This document shows, piece after piece, positions 1,909 through 26,001 of a stretch of 64,000 bases of DNA. The position numbers and the translations under genes are program-made. The notes below the pieces were generated by a model. It made no database searches. It saw only the letters and a program-made list of their open reading frames with translations, and was not told where the DNA came from. Positions within the stretch are counted from its first letter, which is position 1; every line of letters starts with the position of its first letter. The stretch is taken from contig JALNLM010000004.1 in NCBI GenBank assembly GCA_023254095.1, positions 9,359-73,358 of the forward strand, in the 5' to 3' direction. The DNA is from Candidatus Geocrenenecus huangii (GTDB taxonomy: Archaea; Thermoproteota; Nitrososphaeria_A; Caldarchaeales; Wolframiiraptoraceae).

Positions 1909-2187
1909 TTATCTCTTCTTCGTATTTTCTATGACTACACCATCTACACTGTGAATAGCCGCTCCAAGCTTTCTTACAGTTTTCTCAAGTTCCTCATAGT
2001 TTATTGCTTCACCCTCAATTATTAACCTGATACTGTCTGTCTCTGCATCAACCTCGACTAACTCTACTTCTACTCTAGAAACACCCCTAACTCTAGAAAT
2101 CTCATATCCGAATTCTACGAGAGATGGAACATGCGTCTTCAATACATCCAATATTATCCGAGTCAATCTAGGATGAGAGCTATCCAA
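1909..2187 (-). CDS. DUF211 family protein
   Basis: RIILDVLK.H.P and GAAIHSVD motifs; likely start is the TTG at 2187 after GAGG, not 2355. Confidence 0.8.
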   Translation of the reverse strand: MDSSHPRLTRIILDVLKTHVPSLVEFGYEISRVRGVSRVEVELVEVDAETDSIRLIIEGEAINYEELEKTVRKLGAAIHSVDGVVIENTKKR

Positions 2188-2509
2188 TTCCTCTTTCAAG
2201 CCACTATTATTAATCGGAAATATCTGTTTAAAAACATTGCTAGAAATAGTTAATAAACATTCGCTACCTCGATTAATAAAAAGATGCGAGGATAAGAAGA
2301 GAAGTAAAGGCCTAAAAGACATAACAACATTAGATGATTTTCCAGAGAATTTCATCTTCTATGATTAAGCCAAACAATCACGATAAGCTTTCTGCTTCTA
2401 AACAGACTCAAACCAGAAACAATAAATAGAAAACTAAAAGTTGAATTCAACCTCTAAACAATATAATCACAGAAAATTAGAAGACCAAGAAAGATGTTAT
2501 GAGTTTGTT

Positions 2510-2530
2510 GCGGCGGTCCCCTAGCCTGGC
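2510..2530 (+). repeat. att-like copy of the tRNA-Ser(GCT) 5' end
   Basis: GCGGCGGTCCCCTAGCCTGG vs tRNA GCGGCGGTTCCCTAGCCAGG. Confidence 0.75.
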
Positions 2531-2730
2531 TAAAACTAAATAAAATCGGCTCCTTACACTTTCGTTTTAAATAGACTTCCAGAGGGTTTGGCGGCTTGTT
2601 CGGGTTCTTCAAGTGGGTCTTAACATCCTCTCGAAAAATTTAATTATCTCTCAAAAAGACTTTTAATTACTATAAAGGTGGTGGAAAAACGAGATTATTT
2701 CCTCACTTAAAGAAAAAAATCTTTGCTACA

Positions 2731-4275
2731 ATGATTATCTTGATATTTTTGTTTTCAAGTATTCCGATAATCGCGGTTGAAGCTCAGCAGCTGGTATTCT
2801 ACGATAACTTTAACAACTATGTAGAAAAATCCTATTCGGGGCGGGATGGTCCAGGCATCTGGGTTCAAGAGTCTATAGCCTCTGCCACATACAGTATTGC
2901 TGGCGGAGCCTACAAGATTCAATCTAGTGGGGGGGTATGGACTTCAAAAGCAATCCTAGATTTTTATCGAATATTTTCTAGATCTTGGCCGCCAGGTTAT
3001 GATGGGCCCAAAGATTACATCTTCAGCGTGGGAATTAAGATAGATAGCGGAGGAGGCGGAATAATCTTCAGAGCTATGCCTGGGTCTCAAGAAAAATACT
3101 GGACACATTACGAGGTACGTATCAATAAAGATAATAAAAAAGTGACCCTAGCTAATGTAATTGAGACTTCTTCAGAGTATGCAGAAACCGTCTTAAAGAC
3201 CGTGGATTTCCCCAGCGATGTAAATATTAATGATTGGTTCCGCCTATCGGTTAGGGTTCAAGGGTCCAGTATACAGGTCAGTATTGCAGGTAAAAAAGTG
3301 ATAGATGTGACGAGCACTCTTAGCCCTAATGGAGGTGTTGGATTGATGGTTCTCCCAGGAGGGACAGCTTCTTTCGACTGGGCGGAGCTAGATATCTTAA
3401 CAACGACCGTTACTAATACTGTGACGAGCACTATTACCTCGACTGTCGCCGAACCTCCATCAACAGTAACTGCCACTGTAACTGTGAGTGAATTAGTTAC
3501 AACTACGATAACTACCACAATAGCGTCAACTACTACTGAAACCGTTACCCAGACTGCGGCTACAGTAACGGAGACAGCCCTTCCCCAAACAACTACCGTA
3601 ACTCAAACCATGACGGTTTCCGGACCGGTTTCCACTCAAACTGTCAAAGAAACTGTCACGTCGATCTCAACTGTTACGTTGACGCAGCCAACGGGTGGAG
3701 GAATTAAATGTCTCATAGCTACCGCGGCTTTTGGGTCTGAGATTGCTCCACAAGTTCAGGCTCTCAGAGAGTTTAGAGACGGCCTTGTTATGAAAACATT
3801 TGCTGGCGAGAACTTCATGAACGTCTTTAACACGTTTTACTATTCCTGGAGTCCATATGTTGCACAAGCGGAGTACGAGAATGATCTTCTGAGAAGATTC
3901 ATAAGATTTTCGATCTATCCGCTCATATGGATCCTAGACCTCTCAAAACGTTTAGCTGAACCCCTCTTCATTGTACCAGAGTTCGCGGTTCTAGTGAGCG
4001 GATTGGTTGCAAGCTCCTTGATAGGATTGGTTTATGTTAGCCCGATCGTTCTTCTAGTAATCTTGATCATGAAGCAAAGAGGTAAGAGAATTAACCTTAG
4101 CCTAGTTTATCCATTCTCCGCCCTAATGGTTAGTTTGCTATTCTTCTTCTTGGCCGAGATCACGGTCTCCCCCATATTCATGATGGTCGCTTCCTCGATG
4201 GTAGTTTTATCCAGTATGGCTACCACCTCCATAGCCCCTATAAAGATCCTCTTCTTAAAGAAAAAGCCGAAATAA
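2731..4275 (+). CDS. secreted surface protein: beta-sandwich (LamG/DUF1080-like) domain, Thr-rich linker, CFI-box-CTERM domain
   Basis: Signal peptide, FYDNF start, long T/V-rich tract, CLIATAAFGSE..LREFRD..FYYSWSP, C-terminal TM helices. Confidence 0.8.
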   Translation: MIILIFLFSSIPIIAVEAQQLVFYDNFNNYVEKSYSGRDGPGIWVQESIASATYSIAGGAYKIQSSGGVWTSKAILDFYRIFSRSWPPGYDGPKDYIFSVGIKIDSGGGGIIFRAMPGSQEKYWTHYEVRINKDNKKVTLANVIETSSEYAETVLKTVDFPSDVNINDWFRLSVRVQGSSIQVSIAGKKVIDVTSTLSPNGGVGLMVLPGGTASFDWAELDILTTTVTNTVTSTITSTVAEPPSTVTATVTVSELVTTTITTTIASTTTETVTQTAATVTETALPQTTTVTQTMTVSGPVSTQTVKETVTSISTVTLTQPTGGGIKCLIATAAFGSEIAPQVQALREFRDGLVMKTFAGENFMNVFNTFYYSWSPYVAQAEYENDLLRRFIRFSIYPLIWILDLSKRLAEPLFIVPEFAVLVSGLVASSLIGLVYVSPIVLLVILIMKQRGKRINLSLVYPFSALMVSLLFFFLAEITVSPIFMMVASSMVVLSSMATTSIAPIKILFLKKKPK

Positions 4276-4359
4276 ATCCAAACCTACCACCTCACTTCTC
4301 ATTTTTTTCCCAAATTGTTAAGGGTGGAAGAACAAAATATTATTAATAGCAAATAAATG

Positions 4360-4905
4360 CTATCTCGCCGCATTCGTGCGAAGATCTTCTGGGCTTTGCT
4401 CGACGTTAGGGCCGTCCATATCCGGAACACCGGTATTCTCACGGCAGATCTAAGCTCAAATTGAGATCGCTAATCTTCGATCCTATGGCCTCATTAACTC
4501 TGCAGCCAGCCGCTAAAGAAAACAGACCAATAATCGCTTACTAGGCTTCAGTGATGTGAGAACTTGGGCTAAGACGTTTTTCGTATCGGCTTCAGCTTCT
4601 TGACGGCCGCCTTTTTCGAGAAGAACCGCTTAAGCTTAGCCCGACTCACTTTAATGTCATGAGGCGGGCAGAGGGTGCAGACCGCGGAAAGATAAAGCCG
4701 AATAGTCATGGGGGGGTGATCGGCCAGATCCCTGAGCCTTGAAACCATGCTTAAAAACCGCCTTCTCAGCCCTCTATGGATTAGATAGGATCGCGCTTAG
4801 CGCCTCCCGCGAGACCTTCTATCCATTGGCCGCTAAAAAATGTTCAATCGCATCTTCCTGGAATGCAGTTTAAGAAACTCGCGACAAAAACTTAAATCCA
4901 CACTC
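4360..4905 (-). pseudogene. tyrosine recombinase/integrase pseudogene
   Basis: Manual minus-strand translation across frameshifts: PPMTIRLYLSAV...DIKVSRAKLKRF / LKPSKRLLVCFL / AAGCRVNEAIGSKISDLNL (box I Arg); no HxxR or Tyr found; boundaries approximate. Confidence 0.75.
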
Positions 4906-5045
4906 GCTCCTATCACTCCCGAGGAAAAGATGATCCTGGGGGATGGAAAAGCGTTTAAGGCCCCGGAAGATAGCCCTCCTGAAAACACCGGGTAACATCG
5001 GCCATAACCGCCTAGATAAAAGCTTTCGAGGATTAGGGGATCGAT

Positions 5046-5130
5046 GCGGCGGTTCCCTAGCCAGGTAGGGGGGTGGCCTGCTAAGCCACTGGCCCTTTGG
5101 GCCACGCGGGTTCAAATCCCGCCCGCCGCG
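5046..5130 (+). tRNA. tRNA-Ser(GCT)
   Basis: GCGGCGG/CCGCCGC acceptor stem, GTGGC-CT-GCT-AA-GCCAC anticodon arm, long variable arm TGGCCC/GGGCCA, GGTTCAAATCC T-arm, G73. Confidence 0.95.
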
Positions 5131-5396
5131 CAGTCCACTCTCAACTTTGTTCCTCGAGATTGTTCAACTTCGTCTCTCGAGTTCAAGATAAAGTATACTT
5201 GGTGAGCGTAAATTTCTTCCCACTAGGGCAGAAGGTTAACTAACATGTATGTAACAATATCTAGAAGATAATCTATGAAACTTTTATCTGGTTAAACATC
5301 TTTTTTGAAATCGTTAAATTGAATGTAAAGATAGGAAATGGGCCATGAGATTTAGTAGCGGTAGAGAATTTAGACCTCAATTCCTAAACAAGTATT

Positions 5397-5444
5397 TCAG
5401 GGGATAAGGATGATAAACAATGATGTTAGAGCTTTCTTCATCAG
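5397..5444 (-). ncRNA. possible C/D box sRNA (weak)
   Basis: CTGATGA...CTGA at sRNA-like spacing, but internal D'/C' boxes are poor. Confidence 0.3.
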
Positions 5445-6004: not shown

Positions 6005-6060
6005 GGCTCAGTTAAATGCCTTTTCTTCATTAATCTGTGTAACTCTGATTCATCACAGCC
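6005..6060 (-). ncRNA. C/D box methylation guide sRNA (dual guide, predicted 23S rRNA targets)
   Basis: GGC-U-GUGAUGA-AUCAGAGUUACA-CAGA-UUA-AUGAAGA-AAAGGCAUUUAA-CUGA-GCC: boxes C, D', C', D, two 12-nt guides and a terminal stem. Confidence 0.85.
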
Positions 6061-17616: not shown

Positions 17617-18546
17617 CTATTCAACGGTGATTAGAGCTGAAGCTATTAAGGGCACTATTATCGTCGCATCTCCATAAATTGTAACTTTCATTGCTTCAGG
17701 CTTCACTTTACCCCAGGAGACTGCTTCTCTGACGGCTGCACCACTTAAACTTCCATCATACTCGTACCCCGTAGTAATGTAGACAGCGTAGTCTAATCCA
17801 TCTTTAAACTGATTCCACCACAAGACGTGATGTTTAGAGATTCCACCACCGATCATCAATGCCCCGCTACGTTTAGCATTGAAGATTATTTCAGACAACT
17901 TGTCGAAATCTTTCAAAAGGTTTAACTTGAAGTCCCTATGTTTCTGCTGGAATAGCCAGATCTGCGTTCCAACAGCTCCATCGAGTATCCCTGGAACAAA
18001 GACCGGTATGCCGTTTTCCGAAGCATTCTTCAAGAAGCTATTTTCATCTTTTATCTTTCTCCCAATTAGATATGATATATCGCTGCTACTCACCTCTCTC
18101 AATCCCTTGTTATACTCCTCTTCTAATAGTTCTTGAGTAAATTTCTCTATTGTCTGCCCATAGTTTTCGAATGGGATCAGTACGCATCCAAGCCGATGAT
18201 ATCCATTCTTCTTTAAAGTTTCATCGTCCATCCAGAAGTCCCCCTCATAGTATTCTCCTAGAGATCTGGCGATATCATGGTCTAATGCACCGCACGTCGT
18301 TACAACTACCTCGAACAACCCCCTCTTCAACAATTCGGATATAACCCCTCTTAGACCTGTACCTATCGGCGCACCTACAAATGATAAGAATTTTACGCAT
18401 TCAGGATCTCTGACCATCTCTCTAAGTACTTCTACCGCTCTACCTAAGTATGATGCTGTAAATCCTCCAGCATTTCTCATCTGTTCAATTAGCTCTGAAG
18501 CAGTCATTCCTAGTCTAATCTTAATATCTTTAATCGGCCTAAGCAT
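17617..18546 (-). CDS. dys: deoxyhypusine synthase
   Basis: GGGISKHH, DGSLSGA and EAVSWGK motifs. Confidence 0.95.
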   Translation of the reverse strand: MLRPIKDIKIRLGMTASELIEQMRNAGGFTASYLGRAVEVLREMVRDPECVKFLSFVGAPIGTGLRGVISELLKRGLFEVVVTTCGALDHDIARSLGEYYEGDFWMDDETLKKNGYHRLGCVLIPFENYGQTIEKFTQELLEEEYNKGLREVSSSDISYLIGRKIKDENSFLKNASENGIPVFVPGILDGAVGTQIWLFQQKHRDFKLNLLKDFDKLSEIIFNAKRSGALMIGGGISKHHVLWWNQFKDGLDYAVYITTGYEYDGSLSGAAVREAVSWGKVKPEAMKVTIYGDATIIVPLIASALITVE

Positions 18547-18581
18547 AAGTTTAGGTAATGTAAGGAAGAATATATATTAAA

Positions 18582-19376
18582 CTATAAGAGCTTTTTCAGT
18601 CTTTCTATAACCTCTTCAGAAGACTTGAGGAGAGATAAAGAGAATGGGAGCCCCTCAAGTTCTGCGAGTTCCATAGCGAAAGCATCCACCTCTTCAGGTA
18701 GCCTTGGACCATGTATTACTATCATCTTAGGTTTTATTGGATATAAGCGGACTGCAACCATCGGAGATCTTCCTCTACTGACTTTAGTAAATATCATGGC
18801 TCTGTTAGGATTTTTACCGAATAGATAGAGGAAGTCTAAGGCTTCTAGGTTTCTTATCGCTGATAGACTATCGATCACCGTGTATCCATATATTAGCTCG
18901 TTATCCCATTCTTTTCCCACTAGTAAGATGCCGTCTAACGCTTCCACAACCTCCTTGATAGTTTTAGGTTTCTTGAATTCATTCATATCTAGTACAGCTA
19001 CGCTAAGGTCACGGTGGAGCATCGAGAATCTCCTAACATGTATTCCGCCTCTCTTCATGTCTGCATCTATGAGGGCTGAAACAAATTTTCTTATGAATCC
19101 TGCTCCAGGAGATTTCCTTCTATTATTCTCATAATCGCTTAATACAGATGAAGATACACCCATGTATCGAGCTAGCTCACTTTGATTTATCTCGAATAGC
19201 TGTCTCCATTTCTTCATCACGGTTCCTGGGCCATCAGACAGTATTATCTCTCCAGCTATTCTACTCATCAATATCTCTTTCGTCGTTATACTTACTTCTT
19301 TCTCAATCATGTTCTGCACCATACTACATTTCCCTATATTACAGCATAACATGTTTTCTAAATAGTTTCTGTTCAA
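18582..19376 (-). CDS. XRE-HTH transcriptional regulator (COG1709-like)
   Basis: IAGEIILS, SDYENNRRKSPG and GRSPMVA; true start probably downstream of 19376. Confidence 0.85.
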   Translation of the reverse strand: MNRNYLENMLCCNIGKCSMVQNMIEKEVSITTKEILMSRIAGEIILSDGPGTVMKKWRQLFEINQSELARYMGVSSSVLSDYENNRRKSPGAGFIRKFVSALIDADMKRGGIHVRRFSMLHRDLSVAVLDMNEFKKPKTIKEVVEALDGILLVGKEWDNELIYGYTVIDSLSAIRNLEALDFLYLFGKNPNRAMIFTKVSRGRSPMVAVRLYPIKPKMIVIHGPRLPEEVDAFAMELAELEGLPFSLSLLKSSEEVIERLKKLL

Positions 19377-25690: not shown

Positions 25691-25784
<94 letters not shown>

Positions 25785-26001
25785 CATTCTCCTCTTAACA
25801 TTAAGTTTGATAACATGCATCACATGTTTAATACTTCGATGAAGAAAGAAGAGAAATAAGGCCCATACGTGGTGGTCCCTCTTCTTCTAACACATCCCTT
25901 TAAATTGGTTCTCTTCCTCATATAAGATACAATATTGATTGATCTAAAATTCTTATATTCTCTATAAAGAAAAATGATATGAAGGTAGGGTGTTTATCTT
26001 T

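Follow-up and report, generated by a model that had tools for sequence, protein, structure and literature searches.

The tRNA-Ser(GCT) locus

The stretch of DNA analysed here, hereafter the window, comprises 64,000 nucleotides (nt) of the archaeon Candidatus Geocrenenecus huangii (G000:C1:9359-73358, from a genome of 1.6 Mb in 32 contigs), and the present analysis is concerned with a 2.5-kb insert, located upstream of the tRNA-Ser(GCT) gene, that carries the relic of a tyrosine integrase. The tRNA gene is intact at 5046-5131 on the plus strand (ARAGORN; Rfam tRNA model, 54.6 bits, E 1e-9) and is the sole gene of its type detected in the genome. An earlier reading, made from the sequence alone (the sequence-only reading), had pointed to a copy of the 5' end of this gene some 2.5 kb upstream of it. 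This copy is indeed found at 2510-2529, where bases 1-20 of the tRNA recur, with 18 of the 20 identical, 2536 nt upstream of the intact gene; the stub has C for T at base 9 and T for A at base 18. When up to three mismatches were allowed, the 20-mer matched the window at the stub and at the tRNA gene itself, with no third match, and two matches were obtained in none of 100 dinucleotide-preserving shuffles of the window, so that the chance expectation is zero. The likeness between stub and tRNA ends sharply after base 20 and is weak upstream of base 1 (7/13). The insert is flanked by direct repeats formed from part of a tRNA gene, as is required of islands bounded by attachment (att) sites.

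The two copies differ in what precedes them. The region upstream of the stub is AT-rich and native-like, and the region upstream of the working tRNA is GC-rich. The latter contains a TATA-like sequence, GATAAAAG, at 5015-5022, that is, at -31 to -24 from the tRNA start, a position which fits the A+T peak found at -32 to -26 upstream of 26 tRNA genes of this genome. The sequence-only reading had placed such a box before the intact tRNA and inside the inserted DNA, and 5015-5022 does lie within DNA that appears to derive from the element. The proposal that the element supplied the sequence upstream of the working tRNA, including the TATA-like box, is thus supported at the level of sequence comparison. 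The sequence-only reading had added the speculation that the element and its cargo could in this way become locked into the chromosome; at most, the last few dozen bases before the tRNA would now be indispensable. A joint of 2530 to 5046 was not seen in the assembled contigs of four public runs, in which rare variants are dropped.

The integrase relic

The interval 4351-5250 has a G+C content of 48-53%, against 34-46% in the surrounding DNA, and a GC-rich stretch of about 0.6 kb adjoins the tRNA side. The sequence-only reading had recognised here a frameshifted tyrosine-integrase relic with a box I, beside the tRNA and pointing away from it, and this description is borne out by collinear homology to P0011, an intact metagenomic integrase of 391 amino acids (aa) with the PF00589 domain, which matches the minus strand over three frames (BLASTP). 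P0011 was among 18 relatives retrieved with the integrase of the genome G030, discussed below, as protein query. The link to the relic came by way of P0011 because the G030 integrase, to which P0011 is 35% identical, has diverged too far to be recognised by BLAST. The intact relatives P0001-P0012 all contain PF00589, and the source names attached to the integrase homologues are Nitrososphaerota archaeon and archaeon HR03.

Residues 3-125 of P0011 align with the relic in one minus-strand frame (E 7e-13), residues 46-104 in a second (E 4e-11, 45% identical) and residues 124-150, which include box I, in a third (E 2e-5). In tblastn searches with P0011 the relic is the sole place matched in the window (E 1.8e-9 and 5.6e-9), and likewise in the whole genome. 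The box I stretch of the relic, AAGCRVNEA, aligns with FATGCRIGEA in P0011. Three in-frame stops fall within P0011 residues 3-47, and at least two changes of frame are needed along the relic. The alignment places the start of the integrase gene near 4884, at a distance of about 160 nt from the tRNA, with the direction of reading away from the latter. Collinear with these matches and on the same strand, P0011 residues 319-342 match positions 4407-4336, with 14 of 24 residues identical (E 0.002 pairwise). Because the matches to residues 150 and 319 are only 34 nt apart in the window, about 168 codons, together with the catalytic core, have probably been lost through an internal deletion, a claim that is weaker than the other points on the relic. 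Among the catalytic residues (the box I Arg, the box II His-x-x-Arg and the Tyr), the relic keeps the box I Arg alone, which points to a fossil and not to a live element.

Several other searches bear on the integrase. A metagenome scan revealed a 98%-identical intact gene (L134), the contig of which stops about 60 nt before the expected att site; upstream of the integrase start it carries 119 nt of non-integrase DNA, which resembles the window at about 4930-4990. No match to PF16795 was found in the relic region with Pfam. When 138 residues of minus frame 0, a frame that is only partly coding, were used in a word-indexed protein search, nothing was returned, and a scan of viral contigs with P0011 was likewise negative. 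A scan of genome contigs with the integrase alignment gave four bacterial loci only, at 25-50% identity, which were left unused. As a separate observation, the genome, which is rated 96% complete, showed no PF00589 match at E up to 0.01, not even to a Xer-type recombinase, and all 14 control genomes showed such matches.

Copies of the relic in G003 and in public runs

Among the 76 genomes compared, DNA similar to the relic was found, G000 aside, in G003, with one additional 25-nt match in G009 (E 0.006). The G003 copy also adjoins a tRNA-Ser(GCT) gene, across a contig break (L048:1-432, G003:C19). Over window positions 4477-5065 the two relics are 83-85% identical, and the flanking genes of the two genomes are 66-77% identical. 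The G003 copy has its own indels of 1-3 nt and a deletion corresponding to window positions 4618-4772 (155-218 nt), and its box I stretch reads in one frame (tblastn, E 2.7e-5). Two in-frame stops, at P0011 K7 and W24, are common to both genomes, which suggests that both copies descend from an already dead gene.

When mismatches between G000 and G003 are sorted by codon position, minus frame 0 is favoured in two blocks (counts 7, 1, 5 and 8, 1, 5), a signal that was left unused here. One codon-like block (7, 1, 5) covers 4841-4949 on the minus strand, where minus frame 0 is open in both genomes for 36 codons. The P0011 alignment places this block on the upstream side of the integrase start, and the pattern could reflect either a small gene of the element or chance.

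Traces of the locus are also found in environmental data. Eleven public hot-spring runs, from four studies, contain at least half of the sampled words of 2300-5400, and two of the four runs that were compared carry the relatives' variants of the relic. Another hot-spring run is rich in a third variant, in which the core deletion is likewise present. One RNA-library contig links a relic of the G003 type with the tRNA, with the proviso that RNA-library contigs may stem from DNA and that their strand is not given. No RNA-library contig on 4276-4483 was seen among the contigs of four runs, which is no evidence of absence.

Empty sites and variation in related genomes

The left flank of the insert is formed by a DUF211 gene, relatives of which are present in 29 of the 41 genomes searched. 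The sequence-only reading had predicted that an empty site should join this flank directly to a complete tRNA-Ser whose 5' end matches the stub (C at base 9, and CCTGG). With regard to the layout the prediction holds in other genera of the family, where the tRNA-Ser(GCT) gene lies divergently, 37-210 nt from DUF211, in eight of ten loci (3/3 in genus g3, 2/2 in g5 and 3/5 in g2); by sequence comparison, this adjacency is the uninterrupted, empty site. The opposite finding, that relatives would all share the layout of the window, is therefore not what these loci present. No congener joins DUF211 directly to the tRNA. The congeners G001 and G005 are devoid of DUF211, and their tRNA, with an AT-rich upstream region, adjoins a homologue of the first gene of the window, with no insert. 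As for the predicted bases, CCTGG is present, as in the stub, in five of the eight empty-site tRNAs and CCCGG in the other three, and C at base 9 occurs in none of the eight, so that it looks like later decay of an unused copy.

The DNA to the left of the stub resembles the native tRNA upstream regions of congeners: an 11-mer recurs in G002, and over positions 2488-2529 the identity with the upstream region and tRNA start of G005 is 78.6%. The DNA to the left of the working gene resembles none of the congeners' native upstream regions.

A different kind of variation is seen in G002, G004, G006 and G007, where a metal-transport block of up to 7 kb lies between DUF211 and the AT-rich tRNA upstream region (L031, at G004:C17:26500-36500, L032-L034, L049 and L052). 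It encodes an FTR1-like permease, a DsbD-like protein, a copper chaperone and a P-type ATPase, as well as a 751-aa secreted protein that is missing in G002 and G007. Neither a repeat nor an integrase was found in the block of these four genomes. The DNA just upstream of tRNA-Ser(GCT) appears to be a hot spot of variation within the genus.

An intact counterpart and its integrase family

The sequence-only reading had suggested a search for intact relatives with att sites of the 5' type, and one was found in G030, a complete one-contig genome of the same order and another family. Here a 355-aa integrase gene lies 123 nt from the start of tRNA-Ser(GCT) and points away from it, and tRNA bases 1-20 are repeated without a mismatch 7171 nt upstream. 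The DNA between the repeats contains a primase-like open reading frame (ORF) and others of 294, 422 and 487 aa. The left copy follows AT-rich DNA, and in front of the working tRNA stand GATAAATA and TTAGGGG, at distances equal to those of GATAAAAG and TTAGGGG in the window. Thus the limits of the repeat, the gene order, the orientation and the target are the same in G030 as in the window.

With a profile of 12 relatives, the integrase family was detected in 13 of the 76 genomes of the order. In five of them (G030, G037, G040, G010 and G013) a tRNA gene lies within 1.5 kb, and in all five the integrase gene is placed divergently at the 5' end of that tRNA, the targets being Ser-GCT, Arg-TCT (twice), Lys-TTT and Met. 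Upstream of the different tRNAs of G037, G010 and G040 (Arg-TCT twice and Lys), a near-identical AAATATTTAAA(T/A)AT is found at about 25-35 nt, as would be expected if the promoter travels with the element. In G010, G013 and G037 the contig ends too soon for a second repeat to be seen. These findings suggest that one integrase family of the order consistently targets tRNA 5' ends and brings along its own tRNA promoter, in which case essential tRNA genes would depend on element DNA after the element itself had died. As an additional observation, residues 40-75 of P0012, which form an N-terminal extension, match the antisense of a tRNA-Met gene (G000:C13:54522-54620; 64% over 36 aa, E 5.6e-7). 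The P0012 gene call probably ran through a divergent tRNA, and this would be another integrase at a tRNA 5' end.

The 514-aa ORF of the insert

One ORF of the insert encodes a protein of 514 aa with a signal-like N-terminus, a ConA-like/3-keto-disaccharide-hydrolase domain (Pfam PF06439, E 5.3e-8, 33.6 bits against a cut-off of 26.8), a Thr-rich linker and a membrane-spanning C-terminus. Its homologues are patchy: of 35 genomes from the family, 17 possess them, at loci other than this one. G002 and G004 carry a gene of this type where G000 has a decayed fragment only (C5:21456-21853), and the closest relative in G001 sits between two genes that are adjacent in G000 (window about 18546-18585). 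This surface-protein gene is accordingly movable as well as patchy. In one RNA library, the segments 2877-3527, 3612-3857 and 4037-4189 are represented by contigs with 0-3 differences, which hints at expression.

Interpretation and alternative explanations

The interval 2510-5065 is, with high probability, what is left of a small integrative element which entered the chromosome by recombination at the 5' end of tRNA-Ser(GCT), a reading carried by the repeat, the homology of the integrase, the empty sites in relatives and the counterpart in G030. The order of events and the use of the donated promoter can be pictured as follows. The element would have encoded a non-partitioned tyrosine recombinase of the family of P0011 and the G030 integrase, and would have carried, at its attachment site, a TATA box of its own, a short leader and a duplicate of tRNA-Ser(GCT) bases 1-20. 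The crossover with the chromosomal gene would have fallen within those 20 bases, which run from the acceptor stem into the D-loop. At the left end this would have left the old upstream region of the host with a useless 20-nt stub (attL), and at the right end the upstream region and 5' segment of the element would have been fused to the remainder of the host gene (attR, 5046-5065). Subsequently, the integrase gene would have decayed through stops, frameshifts and the probable loss of its catalytic-core codons, and most of the other element genes would now be gone. The features on which this history is based are collected in Table 1. The central proposal of the sequence-only reading, a fossil element with a crossover near the D-loop which gave the tRNA its 5' end and upstream region, is therefore upheld by the empty sites, the integrase homology and the G030 counterpart. 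If this is correct, a single stretch of 2.6 kb preserves the former upstream region of the host and the stub along with the donated TATA-like box and the dead integrase, a clean and datable example of this mode of integration, with G030 and the empty sites available for comparison.

Table 1. Features of the insert and its flanks, in window coordinates
Feature	Position	Strand	Basis or remark
DUF211 gene, left chromosomal flank	1909..2355	-	Pfam PF02680, E 4.6e-25
Putative orphaned native tRNA upstream region, former promoter side, AT-rich	2420..2509	+	AACTAAAAGTT common to the G002, G004 and G006 tRNA-Ser upstream regions; similar general style
52-codon ORF across attL, judged chance	2454-2612	-	Split-integrase reading rejected
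attL, copy of tRNA-Ser(GCT) bases 1-20	2510..2529	+	18/20; same limits as the perfect G030 repeat
Left end of inserted DNA, non-coding, about 200 nt	2530..2730	.	Between attL and the 514-aa ORF
514-aa ORF, cargo or later arrival	2731..4275	+	Pfam PF06439
Probable integrase C-terminal tail remnant	4336..4407	-	P0011 residues 319-342
Integrase relic, N-terminal domain through box I	4442..4884	-	P0011 residues 3-150, three frames
Putative element-derived DNA between integrase start and att, now upstream region of the working tRNA	4885..5045	+	Common to G003
Intact tRNA-Ser(GCT); bases 1-20 (5046-5065) = attR	5046..5131	+	ARAGORN, Rfam

Several observations weigh against this reading or against parts of it. 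Single-frame scans of the relic with Pfam and PHROGs gave no match, and none of the three minus-strand frames matched PF00589 at E up to 1, as would be expected if the catalytic domain has been deleted; the similarity to recombinases that the sequence-only reading had required of 4360-4905 is nevertheless present by way of P0011. In a blastx comparison of the relic with every ORF in the neighbourhood of 30 integrase loci of the order, the best match reached an E of 0.3. The internal deletion is defined by the tail match, and this is weak, its E value of 0.002 in the pairwise comparison becoming 0.31 against the whole window. Both repeats are seen in G030 only, which is the one locus of the five that could be checked at both ends, and over 20 kb in G040 no further copy of the tRNA-Lys 5' end was seen. 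The 514-aa ORF, with its host-like relatives elsewhere, may not have been an original cargo of the element. The use of the donated promoter is likewise an inference, and it is most likely that the tRNA is now transcribed from it. Finally, the simple vertical descent of a neutral fossil does not explain why the relic is better conserved between G000 and G003 than the flanking genes, since such a fossil would be expected to be the less conserved of the two.

This last point favours a variant of the same history, in which the relic and the 5' part of the tRNA came into G000 or G003 from another lineage, through homologous recombination, or have been maintained by selection as a leader or promoter. 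The two stops shared by copies of an already dead gene, the RNA-library contig that joins the G003-type relic to the tRNA, and the abundance of the third variant with the core deletion point in the same direction. However, the independent small indels and the larger deletion in G003 indicate that most of the relic is under no constraint, the identity near the promoter is no higher than elsewhere, and contigs from RNA libraries can stem from DNA and are strandless. We regard this variant as unlikely, though not negligible. Equally tentative is its stronger form, namely that promoter, relic and tRNA form a cassette which is kept by selection or passed between species, the sole detected tRNA-Ser(GCT) being dependent on a donated promoter and leader. 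If true, it would explain the excess identity of the relic over housekeeping genes despite the shared stops, and it would imply that the whole integrase family of the order routinely rewires the transcription of host tRNA genes.

Two further explanations dispense with all or part of this history. The stub could have arisen by chance or from a tRNA gene that was duplicated or has decayed, and the intervening 2.5 kb could be ordinary chromosomal DNA brought there by rearrangement; the region upstream of the tRNA is rearranged in several congeners without any repeat, as the 7-kb metal-transport block illustrates, the 514-aa ORF has chromosomal relatives elsewhere, and other tRNA-Ser genes share much of the 20-mer. 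We consider this very improbable, given that chance predicts no match at all, that the likeness stops exactly at base 20, as in the perfect G030 repeat, that the integrase relic sits where the intact counterpart has its integrase, and that the region upstream of the working tRNA is foreign in composition and common to G003 alone among the 75 other genomes. Even less credit can be given to an SSV-type partitioned ('suicidal') integrase with the att site inside its gene, which integration would have split into an N-terminal part at the left end and a C-terminal part beside the tRNA. Minus-strand ORFs at 2454-2612 and 4870-5115 do cross attL and attR in the same frame relative to the repeat, and an SSV-type element does exist in the same genome, at tRNA-Leu(GAG) on contig C2. 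Nonetheless, the frame crossing the att site is broken by a 1-nt difference in G003, the family belongs to PF00589 and not to PF16795, and the non-integrase DNA upstream of the L134 start agrees with a gene that ends short of the att site. The reading of a split integrase through att was rejected in view of the G030 integrase, which is whole when integrated and stops short of the tRNA, together with the start mapped by the P0011 alignment, which leaves the att site outside the gene. A non-partitioned element integrated at the tRNA 5' end thus remains the preferred explanation.

Other observations in the genome

A second element of the 5' type is found in the same genome, outside the window, at G000:C2:111126-115732 (L133). 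A perfect repeat of 17 upstream nt plus bases 1-44 of tRNA-Leu(GAG) lies 4.5 kb upstream of that gene, and the three ORFs between the repeats encode a 612-aa AAA_25 ATPase, a zinc-ribbon protein and a 307-aa protein of PF16795 (archaeal phage integrase, 28.7 bits). The first 17 codons of the 307-aa ORF are the tRNA stub in sense, and a 76-aa ORF extends, with identical residues, into the intact tRNA, a pattern that marks a partitioned integrase of the SSV type. The end of contig C24 coincides exactly with that of the L133 repeat.

With regard to other RNA genes, ARAGORN reports at 25691-25785 of the window a tRNA of undetermined type with a 2-nt anticodon, which probably bears an intron. The program lists 29 tRNA genes only in the whole genome, so that several must have been missed. 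A C/D-box sRNA-like match to sR17 at 6006-6060 on the minus strand (25.7 bits, E 0.015) falls below the Rfam gathering score of 36.

Comparison with known systems

Integration at the 5'-distal side of a tRNA gene is already in print for this broad lineage and for tRNA-Ser, and the mode is known, if uncommon. It was the subject of Zhao and Williams 2002, going by the title of that work and its citation by Krupovic et al. 2019. The partitioned SSV-type integrases (PF16795) are archaeal and target tRNA genes, some of them using the 5' part. In contrast, their att site lies inside the integrase gene, which is split on integration, whereas the gene considered here stops short of att and belongs to the PF00589 family. 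The case of Zhao and Williams is reportedly bacterial.

The closest precedent is CalSub-E1, a cryptic integrated element of Ca. Caldiarchaeum subterraneum, for which 5'-distal recombination with tRNA-Ser is described in the parts consulted of Krupovic et al. 2019 (PMC6563490), where other 5' cases, Thermococcales elements among them, are also cited. The two systems come from the same broad lineage, and CalSub-E1 is small and has its primpol, PriCT-1 and helicase domains distributed over separate genes (PMC6563490), which may be set beside the primase-like and large ORFs of G030. The window copy differs in being a 2.5-kb wreck with a dead integrase, and promoter donation is not discussed for CalSub-E1 in those parts of the source. 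A related situation appears in the portion consulted of Sugahara et al. 2012 (PMC3293823), where a 5' fragment of tRNA-Thr(GGU) lies beside a 1.8-kb recombinase-bearing insertion in Caldiarchaeum populations. There, too, an insertion encoding a recombination protein left a 5' tRNA stub upstream of a working gene in a related archaeon. As far as that portion goes, however, the case concerns another tRNA, a junction at bases 24-27, the gain of an intron and a repeated element of six copies, while in the window there is no intron and the relic is present in a single copy in its genome.

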